This document shows positions 1 to 62,489 of a stretch of DNA of 64,000 bases, one piece after another. The notes below the pieces were generated by a model. That model was not told the origin of the DNA. It made no database searches and saw only the letters and a program-made list of their open reading frames with translations. Both the position numbers and the translations under genes were made by a program. Within the stretch, counting starts at the first letter, position 1. Each line of letters begins with the position of its first letter. The stretch covers positions 1 through 64,000 of the IMG/VR virus record IMGVR_UViG_3300044630_004371. One strand, 5' to 3'. This stretch comes from a virus.

Positions 1-1881
1 AAACAAGCTACAAACGATATAGTAGTTTTTTGTCATGATGATATATCCATAGAAACCAAACAATGGGGTAACAAACTTTTAAAAATGTTTGAAAAACATC
101 CACAATATGGTATTTTAGGTGTTGCTGGTTCCAAACAAATGCCAGTTAGTGGAAGATGGTGGGAAACACCTAGAAAAATGTATGGTCGTGTCGCACATAC
201 ACACGAAGGCAAGACTTGGTTATCAACATATTCTGATGATTTAAACCAAGAAGTTGAAGAAACGGTTTCGGTTGATGGAGTTTTCTTTGCAATTGATAAA
301 ACAAAAATAAAAAAACCTTTCAACGAAGAGGTGAACGGGTTCCATTTTTACGATGTGACTTTTTGTTTTGAAAATTATTTAGAAGGTGTTAAGATTGGTG
401 TTACAACCGTTGTCCGTATCAATCATAAATCTATAGGTATGACCAATGATGAATGGGAAAATAACAGACAACAATTTGCCGAAAAATTTAAAAATAACTT
501 ACCTGTAGATATTAAAAAAATTTTTAGAAAAGGAGAATCACCTAAAGTTTTAATTGGTACTGTTAATCTTAACTTTGGTATGGTTGAACAAGAATATATT
601 TTTGATTTAATCAAAAAATTAAAAAACGAAAATTGTGATATTACTTTAGCCAGTGCTGTTGACAAAAAAACAGAAACTTTTTTAAAACAAATGGGTGTAA
701 AAATATTTACCCCTCAAGAACCACCAGGTTTTAAAGTTGGTGATGGCAAATGGTTATTAAAAACACAACAAGGTAATGTGGTTTCTCAACCAAACAATTT
801 ATATAAAGTCAAAGATGTTTATTTTGACATGTTGTATATTGATAAAAAACCAATGGTTGAATATTTGTTAAGACTTTATCCAAATACTGAAACTGTTTGT
901 ACAATTTATTCTGTAGATAATCCTTTGGAAGAACCTGTGGTTGACGAAATGATTATAAAATACATAGCTCTTGATGAAAAAGTTAAACAAAAACTTGTCA
1001 ATTTAAATTCAATTGATGCTAATAATGTTGAGTTGTATGAGCCAAATAAAGAAAAAGCTAAACCAATTAATAAACCCAAGCTTAAAAATGGCCCTATCAA
1101 AATTATGACTGGTTGGTCAGATAGAGGTGGTTCTACAAATGCTTTTATTTCTTTGACAAACGCTTTAAATAAACTTGGTTATGATGCAACATTATATGGT
1201 CCGCATACTTGGCATTTAGATAAATGTAAATCAGCGTTGTTGGATAATAACAATTTAAATGTTGGGTCTAACGATAGATTAATAGTACACTTCCTTCAAT
1301 TACCTAACAGACCAAATGCTGGTAAGGTTATTCTTTCTTGTCATGAAAAAAATTTATATGAGGTTGGTAAAATCAAACAATTTTGGGATGAAGCTGTATT
1401 TTTGAATCAAAGACATAAAGATTACCATAGTGAATATAACGGTGAATTCAAGATTATACCAAATTTAAAAACACCTTTTATTTTAAAAGATAAAACAGGT
1501 TTGGAAAAAATAGCTGGTGTTATTGGTTCATTTGATGAAAACAAACAAACTCATGTTTCAATTCAAAGAGCTTTAGCTGATGGTTGTGAAAAAGTTTATT
1601 TGTTTAGTGAGCCATATGGCCCTTATTATGAAAACTATGTAAAACCATTGCTTAGTGATAAAGTAATTTTAAAAGGTTTTGTTGAAGATAAACAAGTCAT
1701 GTACGATATGCTTGGGTGTGTATACCATTCTTCTAAAAGCGAAGTTGCTTGTTTGGTTAAAGATGAGTGTGAATCAACTGGTGTTGTTTTCCACGGTAAT
1801 GAAGCGACTGACAATCCACCTGTATTATTAACAAACGATGAGATAATAAATAAATGGTTAAAAATATTGGAATTAAAATAA
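1..1881 (+). CDS. Multi-domain glycosyltransferase (GT2-like N-terminus + GT-B/GT4-like domains), 5'-partial
   Basis: Frame is open from base 1 (KQATNDIVVFCHDDI), continuing into the ORF-track entry 85..1881; DGVFFA and FHFYDV motifs of GT2-like family; C-terminal GGS...L..LGY GT-B-like segment. Confidence 0.75.
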   Translation, partial: KQATNDIVVFCHDDISIETKQWGNKLLKMFEKHPQYGILGVAGSKQMPVSGRWWETPRKMYGRVAHTHEGKTWLSTYSDDLNQEVEETVSVDGVFFAIDKTKIKKPFNEEVNGFHFYDVTFCFENYLEGVKIGVTTVVRINHKSIGMTNDEWENNRQQFAEKFKNNLPVDIKKIFRKGESPKVLIGTVNLNFGMVEQEYIFDLIKKLKNENCDITLASAVDKKTETFLKQMGVKIFTPQEPPGFKVGDGKWLLKTQQGNVVSQPNNLYKVKDVYFDMLYIDKKPMVEYLLRLYPNTETVCTIYSVDNPLEEPVVDEMIIKYIALDEKVKQKLVNLNSIDANNVELYEPNKEKAKPINKPKLKNGPIKIMTGWSDRGGSTNAFISLTNALNKLGYDATLYGPHTWHLDKCKSALLDNNNLNVGSNDRLIVHFLQLPNRPNAGKVILSCHEKNLYEVGKIKQFWDEAVFLNQRHKDYHSEYNGEFKIIPNLKTPFILKDKTGLEKIAGVIGSFDENKQTHVSIQRALADGCEKVYLFSEPYGPYYENYVKPLLSDKVILKGFVEDKQVMYDMLGCVYHSSKSEVACLVKDECESTGVVFHGNEATDNPPVLLTNDEIINKWLKILELK

Positions 1882-2861
1882 TGGAAAGGGTTAAAAATTG
1901 GGTTAAAGAAAAAGCTGTTATTTTATCAATAGCACTTTCAAATGTTGAAAAAAATGCGTTTGGTCAGAATAATGAAATGTTAAATACTGATATTAATCAC
2001 GATACAAGACATTCTCAAGGTAAATTAGCTGATTCGTTGATTAATGGTGAAATAACGCAAGAAGTGATTGATTTAAGATGGAGGACATACAAAATCTTAA
2101 AAGCTACTGAAGGTATCATTTCAGAGATAACAGGTTATGATGATAATGATTTACCTATTGTAAAAACTAAAAAATCCGATAAAAAAAGAGGGTTAGAGAA
2201 CATAAAAATAGATACATATGATTCTTATCCTTTGGAAATGGTTGTTGAAAACGATGATATAACTATAGGTGTCAAAGAATCATTAGAAAATGTTTTTATA
2301 AACGTCCAAAATGAAGCAACTATTAAAAGTGAAACATTTATAGACACGTCTAATTTTGAAGAAAAAGAAGAAAAAATTGCAATTCATGGTAATATTACAG
2401 CTGATGATTTTTTTGCTAGTCGTAAACCACAAAGACCAATTATTGTCGGTAGAACATTTTTTACTAAATTCAATATTGAAAATTTTACCAAAAAACTCAA
2501 CGTAAGAACAATTGATAATAAAAATAAATTAATTGAGTTTTATGTTAGTGTGTACCCAGATGATTATAATAAAACCTCCAAATTATTTTTAAATGAGATA
2601 AAAAAAGCGGTTAAAAATCCTATAGCCTCAAACATGTTGGAAATAAAGGAGGTTGGTTTTATAACACACAAAACAACTGGTGCTGATGATTTTTTAGAAT
2701 ACAAATATGAAATAACATCATTTGATAAAATAATTGAGTTTAATAGTTTTTATGTTATAAAATTTTTAGCTAATGTTGTCATTGATGGTAATGATATATT
2801 AGAACAACATAGAGTTGTTGAATTAGATGAAAATTATAAAAATAAAAAAAGAAAAAAATGA
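1881..2861 (+). CDS. Hypothetical phage protein
   Basis: Long ORF; ATG at 1881 overlaps the upstream TAA (TAATG coupling). Confidence 0.7.
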   Translation: MERVKNWVKEKAVILSIALSNVEKNAFGQNNEMLNTDINHDTRHSQGKLADSLINGEITQEVIDLRWRTYKILKATEGIISEITGYDDNDLPIVKTKKSDKKRGLENIKIDTYDSYPLEMVVENDDITIGVKESLENVFINVQNEATIKSETFIDTSNFEEKEEKIAIHGNITADDFFASRKPQRPIIVGRTFFTKFNIENFTKKLNVRTIDNKNKLIEFYVSVYPDDYNKTSKLFLNEIKKAVKNPIASNMLEIKEVGFITHKTTGADDFLEYKYEITSFDKIIEFNSFYVIKFLANVVIDGNDILEQHRVVELDENYKNKKRKK

Positions 2862-3604
2862 AACAAAAGCCAATAGTACATGCTTTTTTCGTTTGTTATA
2901 ACGAAGAAAATATATTACCTCATTTATTAAATTATTATTCCAGTTTTTGTGAAAAAATAACAATCCTTGATAACAACTCAACTGATAAAAGTTGTGAAAT
3001 AATTGAATCGTTTCCAAACACTGAAATAATCCCATTTGATTCAAATGGTGAATTTCATGATGGGGTTCATGTTAAATTAAAAGACCATGTTTGGAAATCA
3101 AGTGTTGGTTATGCTGATTTTGTTATTTTAGGGGATGCTGATGAATTTTTATATCATGAAAATATGATTGATTTTTTAATAGATTCAAAAGAAAAAGGTA
3201 TCACGTTTTTTAAACCAGAGGGGTATCATATGATTGGTGATGAAGAATTAGAATTATCAGTTGAGGATAATATTTTTGAAAAAGTTAAATACGGTGTTAA
3301 AACACCTGTGTTGGACAAACCGATGATGTTTGATTGTAATAAAATCATAAACATAAATTATGGTTTTGGGTGTCACTCCGCAAATCCTGTGGGTACCGTA
3401 GTTCCATCAATCTATAATGGTTTGAAATTGATACATTATAAATTTTTAGGTTTGAAAGATTATTTGTATAAAAATAAAATTAGGGCTGAAAGGTTAAGCA
3501 AGTTTAACAAAGATAATGGTTTTGGTTTGTATTATATGTTTAGTGAAGAAGAACATATTATTGATTATAAATCTTATATTGATAGGAGGGTTAAAGTGTT
3601 ATAA
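2858..3604 (+). CDS. Glycosyltransferase family 2-like
   Basis: CYNEE, DNNSTD, GDADEF (DxD) motifs. Confidence 0.8.
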   Translation: MKQKPIVHAFFVCYNEENILPHLLNYYSSFCEKITILDNNSTDKSCEIIESFPNTEIIPFDSNGEFHDGVHVKLKDHVWKSSVGYADFVILGDADEFLYHENMIDFLIDSKEKGITFFKPEGYHMIGDEELELSVEDNIFEKVKYGVKTPVLDKPMMFDCNKIININYGFGCHSANPVGTVVPSIYNGLKLIHYKFLGLKDYLYKNKIRAERLSKFNKDNGFGLYYMFSEEEHIIDYKSYIDRRVKVL

Positions 3605-3605
3605 A

Positions 3606-4286
3606 ATGATTATAGGTAATGGATTGATAGCCGAAGCGTTTAGAAAAGACGAGGAACAATATGAAGATTATATCATATTCGCTTCTGGTGTTTCAAATTC
3701 TGGTGAAAATAGTTTAGATAACTTTAAACGTGAAAAAGATTTGATTGTTAAAACTATAAGCGAAAACCATAAACTAAAATTTATTTATTTTAGTAGTGTT
3801 TTGGTTGGTATAATTGATAATGATTATTATAATCATAAAATAGACATTGAGAACACCATTAAAGAAAAAGCAAAAAAATACATTATATTCAGAATCCCAC
3901 AAGTTGTTGGTCAAACTGGTAACAAAAATAACTTAATTAATTTCATTACCAATTTGGTTAAAAATAATAAACCCGTTACTTGTTACAGAAACGTATATAG
4001 GTCGTTATTAGATATTGAAGATTTAACAAATATGGTAAGTTATTGTTGTGATGTTAACAATGAAACAATATTTATATCTGGTGTGGAGAAAGTACTTGTG
4101 TTGAATATAATTAATGAAATTGGTGTGTTATTGAATAAAAAACCAATCATCAACGACATTGACCCACCTTTTCAAAATAATTGGTTTGTTGAAAATACTG
4201 ATATTGTTAAACAAGCAATTAAAACTTTTAAAATTGATACATTTACATATACTAATAACGTTATAAAAAAATACATAAATAATTAA
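3606..4286 (+). CDS. NAD-dependent epimerase/dehydratase-like protein
   Basis: Start refined to ATG 3606: MIIGNGLIA, FASGVSNS, YFSS, YYNHK (YxxxK). Confidence 0.7.
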   Translation: MIIGNGLIAEAFRKDEEQYEDYIIFASGVSNSGENSLDNFKREKDLIVKTISENHKLKFIYFSSVLVGIIDNDYYNHKIDIENTIKEKAKKYIIFRIPQVVGQTGNKNNLINFITNLVKNNKPVTCYRNVYRSLLDIEDLTNMVSYCCDVNNETIFISGVEKVLVLNIINEIGVLLNKKPIINDIDPPFQNNWFVENTDIVKQAIKTFKIDTFTYTNNVIKKYINN

Positions 4287-5010: not shown

Positions 5011-5777
5011 TGATAACTTGTAAATTACAAGGTGGTTTAGGTAATCAAATGTTTCAAATAGCGGCTACCCATGCTTTAGCTTTAAGAAACAACGATGTTT
5101 GTGGTTTTAATTTCAATCAATGTTATACACCATTACAAGGCAATCCTTCAAGAAAATACAAAGATAATATTTTTGCTAAAATAACTGAAACAAATGATTA
5201 TAAATTTAGAGTTGGGTTTACCGAACCTAGATTTGGTTATGAAGAATTACCATATGCGCCAGGATTAATATTAACTGGTTTCTTTCAAAGTGAAAAATAT
5301 TTTTACGATTACAAAGATGAGATTAAAGATTTGTTTTCAATAGATAAATCAAATGTTGAGGGTTTTATTAATTCTGTAAGAAAACCTAACTTATCAGTTA
5401 CCTCAATTCACATTAGACGTGGAGATTATGTAGGTTTGTCTGATATGCATTGTTTATGTACCTTAGATTATTATAATGACGCTATGTCATGCATTGGTGA
5501 TTCTATTTTTGTTATCATATCAGATGACATAGAATGGGTCAAAGAAAACTTACAAGGGAATAACGTATATTATTCACCATTTGAAAACGAAATAGATGAT
5601 TTTACAATGATGACATGTTGTGATAACAATATAATATCAAATAGTAGTTTTGGTTGGTGGGGTGCTTATTTAAACAAAAATGATAATAAAAAAATAATAG
5701 CACCAAAAACATGGTTTGGTCCAAGAGGTCCAAAAGATACCGAAGATATAATTCCAATAAATTGGAATAAAAGGTAA
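5010..5777 (+). CDS. Alpha-1,2-fucosyltransferase-like (GT11)
   Basis: GGLGNQMFQ, HIRRGDY, NSSFGWWGAYL GT11 motifs. Confidence 0.9.
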   Translation: MITCKLQGGLGNQMFQIAATHALALRNNDVCGFNFNQCYTPLQGNPSRKYKDNIFAKITETNDYKFRVGFTEPRFGYEELPYAPGLILTGFFQSEKYFYDYKDEIKDLFSIDKSNVEGFINSVRKPNLSVTSIHIRRGDYVGLSDMHCLCTLDYYNDAMSCIGDSIFVIISDDIEWVKENLQGNNVYYSPFENEIDDFTMMTCCDNNIISNSSFGWWGAYLNKNDNKKIIAPKTWFGPRGPKDTEDIIPINWNKR

Positions 5778-17001: not shown

Positions 17002-17146
17002 ACCTTGGTTATAATGGTAAAGTAAAAAACCACTTTTATAGCTATAAATTCGCCACTTTTGAAAAGACATAGTGGAAAATAACAAAATGGTTTTAAAATA
17101 ATCATCCAAATGTGAAACGTTAAGATATTTATTATAAAACACATGC

Positions 17147-25178: not shown

Positions 25179-25213
25179 TAGGCTGCTATATATTTATAGT
25201 AAAACAAATAACC

Positions 25214-46977: not shown

Positions 46978-47681
46978 TCAGTTAGGTTATTGATAAGTCT
47001 ATCCATGTTTTTAATTGATGTTGAAATGCTAAGTTTTGATTCTTCCATACCTTTCTTTTCACCTCTTAACTTTTTGAAATCATCACTATCCAACTTGCCA
47101 TTTTTATTCATGTCAAGTTTTGATTGATTTCCTTTAAGTTCTTCTCTAGTCATCATTTCATCTATGGCTTTTTCAGCTTCAGAAAGCTCATCTTCTTCTT
47201 CTTCTTCTTCTTCCCACATTGATTGTTGTCCTTCATTGTTTCCTTTACCAGAAAAACCATTGGTTTTCATTTCAGAAAAACCACCAGCACTAGGCATGTT
47301 TTCTGAAATAAGGTTGTCGTTTTCAAATATGTTGATTTCACCTTCAAAGTTATAAGCTTCAGCTAGACTTTTGAATTTAAAACTTAAATGTTTGATGGCC
47401 TTGGCATATGAAGTGTAAACTTCATCTTTTTTGTTCATCAAACCTCCGATATATTTGAAATCTTCAGCAACCAAGTTAGAAGTTTTGGTGGTTTTTTTAA
47501 TAAACCATTCGTGGTTTTCTCTTATGATAGCATAAGCGTTACCGTCTGGACCCATCTTGGTCAATTCAACAACAACATTAGATTGGTTTTCATTAATAGA
47601 TTTGATACCCATTAATTCTTTCATACGTTCATTTATTTGTTGTCCCTTAAGACCAACTGGTGTGATTCTATTATTTTTCAT
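46956..47681 (-). CDS. Hypothetical head-module protein (N-terminal part of putative frameshift fusion)
   Basis: Ends TTA AAA AAA AAA GTC TAA; contains DMNKNGKLDSDD EF-hand-like loop; ATATTTAT motif at 47714-47721. Confidence 0.75.
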   Translation of the reverse strand: MKNNRITPVGLKGQQINERMKELMGIKSINENQSNVVVELTKMGPDGNAYAIIRENHEWFIKKTTKTSNLVAEDFKYIGGLMNKKDEVYTSYAKAIKHLSFKFKSLAEAYNFEGEINIFENDNLISENMPSAGGFSEMKTNGFSGKGNNEGQQSMWEEEEEEEDELSEAEKAIDEMMTREELKGNQSKLDMNKNGKLDSDDFKKLRGEKKGMEESKLSISTSIKNMDRLINNLTEGLKKKV

Positions 47682-47722
47682 GTTATATCCTTTTGTTTTT
47701 TGTTTATTTTAATATAAATATG

Positions 47723-47980
47723 TTACTGCCCCAAATAGTAACCATTTGGTAAACCTTGAAATACATTTTGTTTTTCACCTAATAGATAACAACCAGTACC
47801 ACCACTTACACTATTAACCCAAACCCTTAAATTTGATTGAGCCCCTACACTAACGGTTACACCATTAAGTACTATTGTACAACCAGCAGAACCACCATAT
47901 ATTTCATTATATGTGTGTGCTGTCAAATTAGGTGACTGAGCTGGAACGATTATGCTATGTACATCATTAATATTTGTCAT
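47723..47980 (-). CDS. Small putative virion protein
   Basis: Gly/beta-rich ORF; ATATTTAT motif at 47998-48005. Confidence 0.55.
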   Translation of the reverse strand: MTNINDVHSIIVPAQSPNLTAHTYNEIYGGSAGCTIVLNGVTVSVGAQSNLRVWVNSVSGGTGCYLLGEKQNVFQGLPNGYYLGQ

Positions 47981-48015
47981 TTTTATATTGTTTTCTTATA
48001 AATATCACTTAAAAC

Positions 48016-48040
48016 AAAAAAAGCACCTCTAGGTGCTTTT
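48016..48040 (-). terminator. Intrinsic terminator after thyA
   Basis: AAAAGCACC-TCTA-GGTGCTTTT. Confidence 0.75.
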
Positions 48041-48062
48041 ATATTATTATTTTAATTGGTAG

Positions 48063-49058
48063 CTAGTTGCTTAAAGGTGCTTTTATTGTTGGGTGTGATT
48101 GATAATCACCTAATTGTATATCTTCTTCTAATAAGCATCTACAAAATTCATCATTTTTAAATGAATCAAAAATAGCCGCTGCATCTAAAGGTCCTTCACC
48201 ACACTCACCACCTTCATAAGGCCAAAACTCAGTGTTGATGTTTAGGGTTGGTAGTGGATATGGTTCTCTTGCTCTGGTTGGAACCCCCCATGTATCTAAA
48301 CAATATAATATTTTATCATCATCATTTTGTGTATGACCAAAATCTAATAATCCATCATATCCTAGTATATCAATACCATAATTAGTTCTTTCTTCCAAAC
48401 TCAATTCTCTACCAATTTGTTCTTTGGCTTGTTCAACATGATTTGAATATAAATGCACATCACCTAAATTACCAATAAGCTCATCTGGAACCATATTAAC
48501 TGCCTTGGCGATTATTTCAAGTAGCAATCCATAAGAAGCAATATTGAATGGTAAACCTAAGAATGTATCTACTGAACGTTGATTCCACATCAGTGAGATT
48601 GCTCTGGTTGGTATTGTATCTTTGTACTTTTCATAATCCATTCCAATATCTCCGTACTTTTTAATATATAAATCAACTCTTTCTCCTCTATTCAACTCTC
48701 TTGTATAAACTTGAAATCCATAATGACAAGGTGGAAGAACCATTTGGTCGAGCTCGGCTGGGTTCCAAGCTGACACAAGTAGGCGTCTTGAATCTGGGTT
48801 TGTTTTAAGGTCTTGGATTAGGTTTGCGATTTGGTCTGTGTGTGTGAACTCTGTTGAATGTATTTTATAGATACCTTCCGTTTTATCTAATTCATCAACG
48901 TGAATAGTCTTAAATTGTTTCCAACTTCTCCATTGCTTACCATACACTGGCCCGAGGTTACCAAACCTATCAGCAAATTTTTTATCAGTTTTTATTTTTT
49001 CTACAAATTCTTCTTTTGTATAGGGTCTACCCTCTGGATGTAAATGTTCTTTATTCAT
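48063..49058 (-). CDS. thyA: Thymidylate synthase, C-terminal fragment
   Basis: LGPVYGKQWR, PDSRR, LPPCH (catalytic Cys), QRSVDTFLGLPFNIASY, GDVHLYSNH; own ATG at 49058. Confidence 0.9.
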   Translation of the reverse strand: MNKEHLHPEGRPYTKEEFVEKIKTDKKFADRFGNLGPVYGKQWRSWKQFKTIHVDELDKTEGIYKIHSTEFTHTDQIANLIQDLKTNPDSRRLLVSAWNPAELDQMVLPPCHYGFQVYTRELNRGERVDLYIKKYGDIGMDYEKYKDTIPTRAISLMWNQRSVDTFLGLPFNIASYGLLLEIIAKAVNMVPDELIGNLGDVHLYSNHVEQAKEQIGRELSLEERTNYGIDILGYDGLLDFGHTQNDDDKILYCLDTWGVPTRAREPYPLPTLNINTEFWPYEGGECGEGPLDAAAIFDSFKNDEFCRCLLEEDIQLGDYQSHPTIKAPLSN

Positions 49059-49062
49059 AACT

Positions 49063-49806
49063 TTATTTTTTTTTACAATTATCAAAATGATACCTGACCA
49101 TATTTGCCGATTTTTTAGCGGATAAATTACAATGAGGACAAGTAATTATTTCACGATTTTTAATTGATTCTTTTTGTTTTCTAATGCTATCATCACTTCT
49201 TTTACTACCTAATTTTAATTCTGATAATATTTTTTTTGTTTTGTCCGTGTGGTGTTTTCCAAACATAGAGTTTTTTTCTCCTTTTGATGTACCATTAATT
49301 CTTTTAGTTTCCTTTTGTTTATTTATCTGTTCAATCGGTTTTGGAACCCCTTTTTGAGATTCACTAATTTTTTTATTTCTTTCAAGTATGAAAGTGGGAT
49401 TATTTAATCTTGTTTCATTCCACTTGTTTTTCATTGATTCGGAAATTTTTTTTATTCTATTTTCTTTCTCATCTGTCGGTTTGTCACTTTCAGTTTTTCT
49501 TTTCCTTTCATAAATTTCTTTTTTTTGTGGATTATTAGAAATTGTATCTCCCCCATTTCCTCCTAATGCAATATTATAACCTTCTTTTATAGAATTAAAA
49601 TAATTAATCCAATAAACTTCTCTTTCTAACCAAGTTTTTTCATTTTCACATTCTTCAATCACTTCTTTAACAAAGTTATCTTTACCATATTTCACTATAG
49701 CTTGTTTCAATATTTTACCAGAACCAAGATACTTATCGTTGTTGTGTTTATCCTTACCTATATAAATTTTCCCGTTAATCAAATTTGTTGTTTTGTATAT
49801 AATCAT
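49063..49806 (-). CDS. GIY-YIG (Seg-like) homing endonuclease with NUMOD3 and C-terminal zinc finger
   Basis: IIYKTTNLINGKIYIG, YLGSG, GEKNSMFGKHH, CPHC...HFDNC. Confidence 0.9.
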   Translation of the reverse strand: MIIYKTTNLINGKIYIGKDKHNNDKYLGSGKILKQAIVKYGKDNFVKEVIEECENEKTWLEREVYWINYFNSIKEGYNIALGGNGGDTISNNPQKKEIYERKRKTESDKPTDEKENRIKKISESMKNKWNETRLNNPTFILERNKKISESQKGVPKPIEQINKQKETKRINGTSKGEKNSMFGKHHTDKTKKILSELKLGSKRSDDSIRKQKESIKNREIITCPHCNLSAKKSANMVRYHFDNCKKK

Positions 49807-49862
49807 AATAATATCTTTATTAATAAATATACAAAAAAACCAAAAAAACTCAATAAGAATAG

Positions 49863-50180
49863 TTATTTATTTGAATTTTTTTCTAACTTTTCACACTCTT
49901 CCAAATAAGAACGGTAAGCGTCTCCTGTCCAGATATTACAGTCGTTTTCTAATAGATACTCTATTGATGTATCACCGCGTAAAAACCAAATAAGTTCAGT
50001 AACCATTGTTTTAAACGCCATCTTCTTGGTAGTCAACAATGGAAAACCATCACTCATTTTATGACGAATTTGTCTACCAAATACCGATAGCACTTCTCCA
50101 TTTCTGGTTTGTTTCTTTACTCCATTATCTAAGATGTCTTGGAGTAGGTCTGTGTAACTTTTATCTAATGTGTTACTCAT
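49863..50180 (-). CDS. thyA: Thymidylate synthase, N-terminal fragment
   Basis: [44 protein letters not shown]. Confidence 0.9.
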
Positions 50181-50823
50181 AACTTTCTATTGTTTTATCG
50201 TTGTATGTTATTGTGATTAGTTTGGTTGGGATATTAAAATCATCTAAAAAGCGATGTGATGGTAATGCCATTCTATCCCATGGAAATTGTTTATCTTTTG
50301 GATAATAATCAAAACGGATACGCCATCTTTCTTCTTCACTTAACTCTCTTTCCGCAATCTTTAATCCCCACTTTTCACTGAACTCTGGATTGGTTTTACA
50401 TTCAAAAACAAAAAGTTCTTTTGTGGGGATGTCATCACAACCTAAAAAATAATTGTGGTAATTATCGTAAGCCTTATCCAATAAATCACTTTCCTCAAGT
50501 GTATTTTTCTGAATAGTTTGTTTTTCTATAGCTTTAAAGATTGAAAATTTTTTATTGGTATGTTTTAAATTATTTAAAACACCGCTCTCTTCCCATTTTT
50601 TTAAAATTTCTTCTTTTTCCCTTATAATTTTATTTTGAATATTAATACCAGCACTCCAATTTAACCACTTTATTACAAATAAATAAGTTATTTTATCATC
50701 TTCGGTTATCTTTCTCCAATCCAATTTTCGAAACCCAATAGTTGGGATTAAATAGCATAATTCTTCTTCTCCGAAATGTAAGCTAATTTTATCTGTTAAT
50801 GTAATATCGTAATTTTTTAACAT
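50173..50823 (-). CDS. Hypothetical protein; C-terminus resembles ThyA insertion segments
   Basis: AYDNY...[20 protein letters not shown]...RELSEEER...IPTKLI. Confidence 0.6.
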
Positions 50824-58841: not shown

Positions 58842-58880
58842 AGTATCTTTTTAATATAAATATCTTATGGTTGTTAAAAA

Positions 58881-62452: not shown

Positions 62453-62489
62453 TGTAGTTTAAGTTAAATGTTATTTACTATAAATATCT

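Follow-up and report, generated by a model that had tools for sequence, protein, structure and literature searches.

The DNA analysed here (hereafter the window) comprises positions 1 to 64,000 of the IMG/VR virus record IMGVR_UViG_3300044630_004371, and carries on its minus strand a gene of thymidylate synthase, thyA, in two pieces, thyA-N and thyA-C, separated by the complete gene of a homing endonuclease. The two pieces probably encode a functional two-chain ThyA arising without RNA or protein splicing. From comparative sequence data and a structure prediction the probability of this reading is put at roughly three in four, and it is favoured because many related phages share the same break. 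The whole record is 86,858 bases long with a completeness of ca. 22% as estimated by CheckV, so its source is probably a jumbo phage; the stretch itself is present in lake-water metagenome runs dated from 2018 to 2025.

The locus comprises the following elements (nt, nucleotides; aa, amino acids; related loci are designated L with a number):

49863..50180, minus strand: thyA-N, the N-terminal thymidylate synthase fragment of 105 aa, ending in its own TAA; PF00303 at 92.3 bits, positions 1-91 of the 266 of the profile
49807..49862, minus strand: spacer of exactly 56 nt, T-rich, carrying ATATTTAT, with a promoter-like motif of the ATATTTATWWWAAA type at 49817-49830
49063..49806, minus strand: nuclease gene, coding for a putative free-standing Seg-like GIY-YIG/NUMOD3 homing endonuclease of 247 aa, according to Pfam and PHROGs
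49059..49062, minus strand: the gap AGTT, 4 nt from the nuclease stop to the thyA-C start, the junction reading TAA-AGTT-ATG
48063..49058, minus strand: thyA-C, the C-terminal fragment of 331 aa; PF00303 at 187.1 bits, profile positions 77-226
48019..48040, minus strand: terminator-like hairpin of the intrinsic type, 3' of thyA-C
48970..49930, minus strand: approximate mobile unit (nuclease gene, spacer and co-converted thyA flanks), delimited by sliding identity to L087

This arrangement had been proposed in a preliminary description of the same DNA, and its elements were found in place: the thyA-N frame closed by its own TAA (49863-50180), the 56-nt T-rich spacer with ATATTTAT (49862-49807), a complete nuclease open reading frame (ORF) between the thyA halves (49806 to 49063, with PHROG 314 and NUMOD3 matches) and the restart of thyA-C at an ATG 4 nt past the nuclease stop. 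The longest ORF reading of thyA-C reaches a TTG at 49085; the relatives start at the equivalent of the ATG at 49058. No terminator-like sites were found between thyA-N, the nuclease gene and thyA-C. The end of thyA-N, the nuclease gene and the start of thyA-C are bridged by contigs of two separate lake-water DNA runs (1344 nt without any difference and 1220 nt with 3), one of which may be the source sample of the stretch itself; the arrangement is therefore not an assembly artefact.

Jointly, thyA-N and thyA-C cover the PF00303 profile, the sole Pfam family found in either half, and keep the catalytic residues, features by which they are assigned to the ThyA family. thyA-N ends in a conserved tail of ca. 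16 residues, of the type YL(E/K)EC(E/K)(K/R)L(E/K)K..., while thyA-C comprises a leader typical of the split family, MNKEHLHPEGRPYTK, the catalytic PPCH, QRS.D and PFN motifs, and a long lineage-specific insert, behind which the end ..HPTIKAPLSN aligns to the canonical C-terminus. The GD.H.Y motif is also present in the ThyA of the window.

The break site, its spread and its occupants

The break lies between the segments GDAY..YL and EEF..KIKTD, in a loop whose length varies widely among uninterrupted relatives and whose counterpart is the 'small domain' insert of thymidylate synthase from Lactobacillus casei and Enterococcus faecalis; the alignment with the best PDB match, 3uwl_A (E 5.7e-70), runs through this insert. 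It had been claimed that the gene is broken within a variable insert with the catalytic motifs intact on both sides, and this holds, the insert being the small-domain loop and PPCH, QRS.D and PFN all being kept. Judging from its relatives, thyA is normally contiguous and the copy in the window carries an insertion: thyA is a single ORF in 69 of 86 loci, is cut by the contig end in 11, and was flagged as interrupted in 6, among which L009 is in fact whole (452 aa, with a stray thyA 3' fragment behind). One-piece homologues are found in Flavobacterium phage immuto (423 aa) and in the uncultured phages L004 (368 aa) and L005 (352 aa), of 630-640 kb. A close uninterrupted allele with the same loop sequence, i.e. 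an 'empty site', was not found among the relatives examined. In the uninterrupted L009, patches 95-100% identical to the window alternate with unrelated stretches, and the neighbour genes are unrelated; on this comparison the thyA alleles of this phage group are strongly mosaic.

The same break is widely distributed. A search of 5.8 billion proteins with thyA-N as the query gave 2218 proteins of 57-184 aa at E of 1e-10 or better, and the first 60 residues of thyA-C gave 936 proteins; the counts that follow rest on the best 120 clusters, at 90% identity, of each kind. The N fragments are tight in length, with 111 of the 120 clusters at 101-108 aa, and 117 carry, in more than 60 variants, a tail of the family x(A/S)YL(K/E)EC..L.K plus a few residues, the remaining ones being two from another break site and one without the anchor motif. 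As regards the C fragments, 115 of the 120 clusters start with a 15-residue leader of the type MNKEHLHP(D/E)GRPYTK, PPCH is present in 114 and the ..LSN end in 115, and their lengths are 183-342 aa versus 352-470 aa for the one-piece genes seen. Several N and C clusters match in the size of their longest contig, which suggests that they lie on the same contigs. Among 79 IMG/VR loci with the NIWTGDAY coding pattern, 63 are uninterrupted, 12 are split with a short tail and 1 is split elsewhere (of the other three, two were misclassified by the rule and look whole, and one is at a contig edge). By these counts the break is common to well over a hundred clusters in lake phages, which form a large and diversified family.

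The gap within thyA has been occupied by four different types of ORF, with the tail and the leader homologous throughout:

Occupant 1: GIY-YIG/NUMOD3, 247 aa, in the window
Occupant 2: DUF7487 ORF, 323 aa, in L164/L171/L196 and L180
Occupant 3: NUMOD1 ORF, 240-242 aa, in L173/L194 and L186/L198
Occupant 4: GIY-YIG/NUMOD1 ORF, 268 aa, in L039

Moreover, in L202 (3569-3616, plus strand) thyA is split without any nuclease gene, the N stop being separated from the C start by only 47 nt, in which the 3' end of the 323-aa DUF7487-type ORF of L164 can still be recognised. The two thyA halves of L202 are in different frames, and 94 codons of its C fragment are present before the contig ends. The four types of occupant and the nuclease-free L202 argue that the junction outlived individual nucleases, and it is this turnover at a fixed gap, together with the nuclease-free copy, that makes a stable two-gene architecture of what would otherwise pass for a tolerated insertion. 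In six cassettes the start of thyA-C varies from 14 nt inside to 6 nt past the preceding ORF.

The ORF now occupying the gap in the window scores 21.1 bits against the Pfam family NUMOD3, above the cut-off of 20.4, and 20.2 bits against GIY-YIG, just below the cut-off of 22.6, and its match among the PHROGs is number 314, 'homing endonuclease', with an E of 6.8e-40. Its best published relatives, 33-40% identical, are annotated as Seg-like or homing endonucleases, and by these matches the ORF belongs to the Seg-like GIY-YIG homing endonucleases. It is a single-copy gene within the 86.9-kb record. A second phage (L086/L087) has an identical three-gene layout with a nuclease 96% identical to that of the window, the ThyA-N and ThyA-C proteins being 75% and 50% identical, respectively. 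At the nucleotide level, the bins across the nuclease gene and the spacer share 55-60 of 60 positions with L087 (60/60 in the bin 49868-49809, spanning the spacer), and in the thyA flanks the identity declines towards about half with distance, with dips and with rebounds at conserved thyA motifs. Such a gradient is the pattern expected of homing with co-conversion of the flanks; the nuclease cassette is evidently mobile, and its homing between the window and L087 evidently recent. The nuclease ORF is under purifying selection, with a ratio of nonsynonymous to synonymous substitution rates (dN/dS) of 0.11 at dS 0.14 between the window and L086/L087. A search for the exact 28-nt spacer pattern in IMG/VR and the metagenome collection gave no contigs beyond those already known.

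Several further observations concern the nuclease family, the break and the thyA alleles. In L031-L034 (2941-3402) a nuclease 47% identical to that of the window lies directly upstream of an uninterrupted thyA, so thyA attracts this nuclease family at several positions. In L070 (2006-4639), L067 (2304-4660) and L197 (reverse strand, ca. 1566-3770) thyA is split at two other sites, one just before VLPPCH and the other just after ..WR.W. The cassettes of these three loci bring a second tail (..DDELY.DYLK..*) and leader (M..L(S/T)KEEFL.KLKTD..), the native versions of which are already in the N part, which gives the appearance of a loop-site cassette transferred entire, with its flanks, to new sites. 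A 114-aa ORF carried by L067 and L070 has no Pfam or PHROG match. In L009 (3665-5465) the 452-aa thyA is followed by a 114-aa ORF and then by a copy of the last ca. 29 thyA codons (5379-5465), while in L085 (3113-4525), from a GC-rich relative, thyA is a single ORF of 470 aa, extended in frame at the same loop by ca. 200 aa. On the conserved thyA segments of the window (48400-48900 and 50030-50250) the contig depths of three lake-water runs sum to hundreds to thousands, versus ca. 0-12 on the nuclease gene, a contrast indicating that many related thyA alleles coexist in these lakes.

As to sequence variants, residues 23-30 of thyA-N (50100-50120, minus strand) form a phosphate-binding loop reading QTRNGEVL versus the usual DRTGTGT, one residue shorter. 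It also occurs in the uninterrupted L009 and in many N-fragment clusters, and is therefore a natural variant and not a sign of decay. QRS.D is missing in 32 of the best 120 C clusters (including P0124, P0130 and P0136); the 12 of these that were inspected have N(A/M/C/T)RS(Q/N/V)D or, in one case, are without PFN, and most have ..PLG(T/L)PFN replacing ..FLGLPFN. The QRS.D-less clusters constitute a subclade variant, possibly differing in substrate or product.

Introns and inteins

The preliminary description held that neither an intron nor an intein is present, and proposed a covariance-model search for group I and II introns with a negative outcome expected. An Rfam scan of 47500-50700 (3.2 kb) at E up to 10 indeed gave 7 weak matches and no group I or II intron, and in six loci of relatives, interrupted or otherwise unusual, Rfam found no intron models at E up to 1. 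In the positive control, the same scan mode applied to T4 (NC_000866) found the td intron at E 9.3e-8 and the nrdB intron at E 2.3e-6. These two introns scored 40.3 and 35.7 bits, respectively, versus the Rfam group I gathering score of 50, and the test is therefore good, though not absolute.

The shortfall of the T4 introns themselves is a point for a cryptic self-splicing intron, of group I, group II or an undescribed kind, which would overlap the nuclease ORF, the tail and the leader and whose removal would restore one thyA mRNA. It is also in its favour that nuclease ORFs can extend into intron cores, as that of I-TevI does according to the part of PMC2988022 dealing with it. However, the sequence outside the nuclease ORF between the last N and the first C thyA-homologous codons amounts to only ca. 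111 nt, the C fragment has its own conserved leader starting with Met, and a core could hardly be common to four unrelated occupants and to the 47-nt nuclease-free version, with its separate stop and start in different frames. With the scans negative and the control introns found, an intron of this sort is considered very improbable.

The two chains might also be joined after translation. In the 'fractured genes' reportedly described by Dassa et al. in 2009, split inteins are said to flank a free-standing nuclease gene, and the order of a host half, a nuclease gene and a second host half is the same in the window. Intein halves are absent at its breaks: the frames are closed by stops, no intein domains were detected by Pfam in either thyA half, where PF00303 alone is found, and the residues without thyA homology number only ca. 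9 in the thyA-N tail and ca. 7 in the thyA-C leader. By this count the tail and the leader are too short for split-intein halves, being, to our knowledge, far shorter than any intein half, and joining by split inteins is hardly credible. The statement that no intein is involved is thus upheld.

Constraint, assembly and expression of the two chains

The protein sequence adjoining the junction is under constraint. The pooled ratio of nonsynonymous to synonymous differences per site (pN/pS) is 0.10 over 16 codons of the N tail (28 pairs, 8 lineages sharing the split) and 0.12 over the first 30 codons of the C leader (6 pairs, 4 lineages sharing the split), the synonymous sites being near saturation (pS ca. 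0.65) and the residues conserved. Of the 139 columns with a conservation of 95% or more across 36 uninterrupted relatives, 138 are kept by the window, and the complete C fragments with DNA in hand are all open to the canonical end (6/6). The leader was not found in the uninterrupted loops examined (79 and 46 sequences).

Co-folding of the two chains, a check put forward in the preliminary description, gave an interface score (ipSAE, interaction prediction score from aligned errors) of 0.88 in three runs versus 0.00 for the best control, perhaps only by likeness to solved thymidylate synthases. In the calibration, 116 of 157 solved complexes attained this mark, as did 2 of 215 mismatched pairs. 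The partner had a predicted local distance difference test (pLDDT) value of 91, and at least 97% of the contacts were common between runs. In the model, residues 82-99 of the N tail pack on residues 5-45 of the C leader.

In the mechanism proposed for the locus, the entry of a Seg-like GIY-YIG cassette into the variable small-domain loop of a jumbo-phage thyA would have produced two genes, thyA-N and thyA-C, which, together with the nuclease gene between them, would form one transcription unit ending at the terminator past thyA-C. thyA-N would be translated from its native start up to the TAA in the 5' flank of the cassette. On read-through transcripts the nuclease start codon would be sequestered in a hairpin, and it would be freed only on transcripts beginning at the promoter-like motif within that hairpin, while thyA-C would be initiated independently at an unstructured, A-rich site 4 nt past the nuclease stop. 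The two chains would then fold jointly into a normal thymidylate synthase protomer, the tail helix of N packing on the leader helix of C, to give an N2C2 enzyme without splicing.

The motif ATATTTATWWWAAA, to which the ATATTTAT element of the spacer belongs and whose consensus was drawn from eight cassettes, is found ca. 5-33 nt (mostly 5-10) before the start of every nuclease-type ORF in these cassettes, which carry different nuclease families. In the window, with at most 1 mismatch, 9 of its 18 copies precede, by 40 nt or less, the ATG of an ORF that is 80 aa or longer, versus a background of 2.6% for any position, and nine ORF starts of the window have it 8-37 nt upstream. Examples of the copies are at

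17125-17138, plus strand
25190-25203, plus strand
47708-47721, minus strand
47992-48005, minus strand
58850-58863, minus strand
62474-62487, minus strand

This enrichment points to a general gene-start signal of the phage, and ATATTTATWWWAAA is most likely a promoter of this phage group, still at the rank of a candidate. Each of the six cassettes folded (6/6) is also predicted to form a hairpin with the motif as its 5' arm and, within its 3' arm, the nuclease start codon or the bases immediately following. The RNA at the thyA-C start has less predicted structure than 193 of 200 shuffled sequences (z +1.57). A late promoter combined with a hairpin blocking the ribosome-binding site of the nuclease gene is described for I-TevI, I-TevII, I-TevIII, segB and mobE of Aeh1 in section 12 of PMC2988022, according to which only transcripts from the late promoter escape the hairpin in such a layout.

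The native thyA start (AGTTATGAGTAA, 50173-50180) overlaps the stop of the upstream gene, which ends in ..SYE, and the context of the thyA-C start (AGTTATGAATAA, 49052-49062) is nearly equal to that of the native start (50173-50180). In L164, L070 and L067 the ORF preceding thyA-C likewise ends in ..(S/N)YE* and overlaps the thyA-C start. The matching contexts may be a shared coupling signal or may have come about by chance in AT-rich DNA. A joint 49064->50173 seen in two DNA runs was not used, its shorter side being 20 letters long with a likeness of 90%; the most likely cause is that, in other organisms, the two thyA ORFs begin in similar contexts.

A number of points weigh against a working two-chain enzyme or against the control proposed for it. 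The co-fold may pass only because the paired chains make up a known single-chain fold. The 9 strictly split-specific leader codons show a weaker constraint (pN/pS 0.41). Versus other split copies, the whole-gene dN/dS ranges over 0.04-0.30 in N and over 0.2-0.5 in C; because dS is saturated and the alleles are mosaic, these values cannot date the selection to after the split; part of the diversity of split copies could come from homing into diverse thyA alleles and from mosaic recombination (cf. L009). The conserved-column test on database fragments indicated no gross decay, on a baseline that is circular, the columns having been defined on the reference set; the deviating C columns in these fragments are subclade variants that also occur in the uninterrupted L005. 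No ThyX or second thyA was found in the record, which is incomplete (ca. 22%), so either could be encoded elsewhere in the genome. One metatranscriptome run holds a 0.05 share of the sampled words of the stretch, with contigs only on conserved parts of thyA; these are 90-95% alike and therefore come from relatives, and none reaches the junctions. As to the predicted control, the narrow 15-nt motif ATATTTATWAATAAA, tried with at most 2 mismatches, gave 13 matches versus 8.5 expected and thus no enrichment, a sigma-70 promoter scan of the region gave 28 sites versus 22.3 expected, which is not above chance, and the z-scores of the hairpins, -0.8 to -3.0, are individually modest.

Phage thyA can be dispensable where the host supplies deoxythymidine monophosphate, and td is not essential to phages grown in laboratory hosts. 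A selfish element under drive could therefore spread even if it killed the gene, and the halves would then be dead remnants of a dispensable thyA knocked out by the cassette, their spread owed to homing drive and recent invasions. The recent homing between the window and L087 fits this explanation, as do the mosaic alleles, with which the whole-gene dN/dS cannot separate divergence before the split from that after it, and the N frame of L039, which has an early stop five codons from the contig edge. However, dead remnants would be difficult to reconcile with the canonical open frames in every complete copy seen (6/6 for C, with 115 of 120 clusters ending in ..LSN), the tight lengths of the N fragments, the pN/pS of 0.10-0.12 beside the junction at nearly saturated synonymous sites, the 138 conserved columns kept by the window and a junction that outlived its nucleases. 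Decay of both halves is thus regarded as unlikely, and a functional ThyA of two chains as the better account of the locus.

A wider reading goes beyond the function of this one locus: the split would be an old and stable architecture of a large lake-phage clade, its product an N2C2 enzyme, the gap a landing pad for homing endonucleases, and the tail and leader helices a portable association module, the last because copies of the tail and leader travel to the breaks of L067, L070 and L197. As a whole it is put forward tentatively, as a possibility that falls clearly short of being probable.

Comparison with known systems

Thymidylate synthase, long established as a drug target, is an obligate homodimer with tightly interwoven subunits. 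If the enzyme does occur naturally as two chains, it would show at which point the fold tolerates a cut and still assembles, and its halves could serve directly as a split-enzyme pair whose phenotype is selectable. The solved structures from L. casei and E. faecalis (PDB 3uwl, 1lca), to which the phage ThyA aligns through the small-domain insert containing the break, are single-chain; moreover, the loop is far more variable in length in the phages, and the C part of the phage protein has a further long insert. The T4 td/I-TevI system shares with the window the host gene, a GIY-YIG nuclease and the logic of a late promoter plus hairpin, which is predicted here, but it differs in its detectable ribozyme core (E 9.3e-8), insertion site and single spliced chain, the window having no such core.

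A phrase search of the literature, from which most subscription journals were out of scope, yielded no papers on a split thymidylate synthase, and broader searches gave, for thyA, intron cases only. The td gene of Aeh1, considered as a candidate split gene, was rejected, the two features under the match being one coding sequence overlapped by the next ORF. Genes divided in other ways are described in the pertinent sections of PMC2988022: gene 43 is split in Aeromonas phages 25, with a seg-like nuclease, and 44RR, with a short untranslated intercistronic spacer, and T4 genes 39 and 60, with mobA, represent a gene split into two cistrons. L202 parallels gene 43 of 44RR as presented there, with a different host gene and with a spacer that is demonstrably the 3' remnant of a nuclease ORF.

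The closest precedent, to which the preliminary description had already pointed, is the ribonucleotide reductase of Aeh1 with its 'genes-in-pieces' nrdA-a/mobE/nrdA-b (Friedrich et al. 2007), an account of which is indeed given in PMC2988022, and which is cited in a passage of PMC10448857 from 2023 as the single known instance. As far as these sources describe it, in both systems a gene of nucleotide metabolism is split into two ORFs by a free-standing homing endonuclease, with no intron or intein, the nuclease start lies in a hairpin (a predicted one in the window) with a promoter just upstream, and the chains are expected to reassemble. They differ in the host gene and the nuclease, nrdA with an HNH enzyme in Aeh1 and thyA with a GIY-YIG enzyme here, and in the position of the break, which falls in a functionally critical region of NrdA and in a variable surface loop of ThyA. 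Aeh1 NrdA was shown to be active, whereas the ThyA of the window is known here from its genes and the co-fold. If the two-chain ThyA works, thyA would add a second nucleotide-metabolism enzyme to the single tested nuclease-split working gene, that of Aeh1 NrdA. Three features are unseen in the known cases, as far as the cited accounts go: the very wide spread, the turnover of nucleases at a fixed intragenic gap and the nuclease-free split derivative. In place of the one instance provided by Aeh1, the break in thyA is found in more than 100 clusters at 90% identity, with four occupant types and a nuclease-free form, and this population-scale view, absent for Aeh1, of one break point taken by four nuclease types in turn and retained in one split copy without any, makes the cycle of invasion, decay and loss of intron-less homing endonucleases directly testable.

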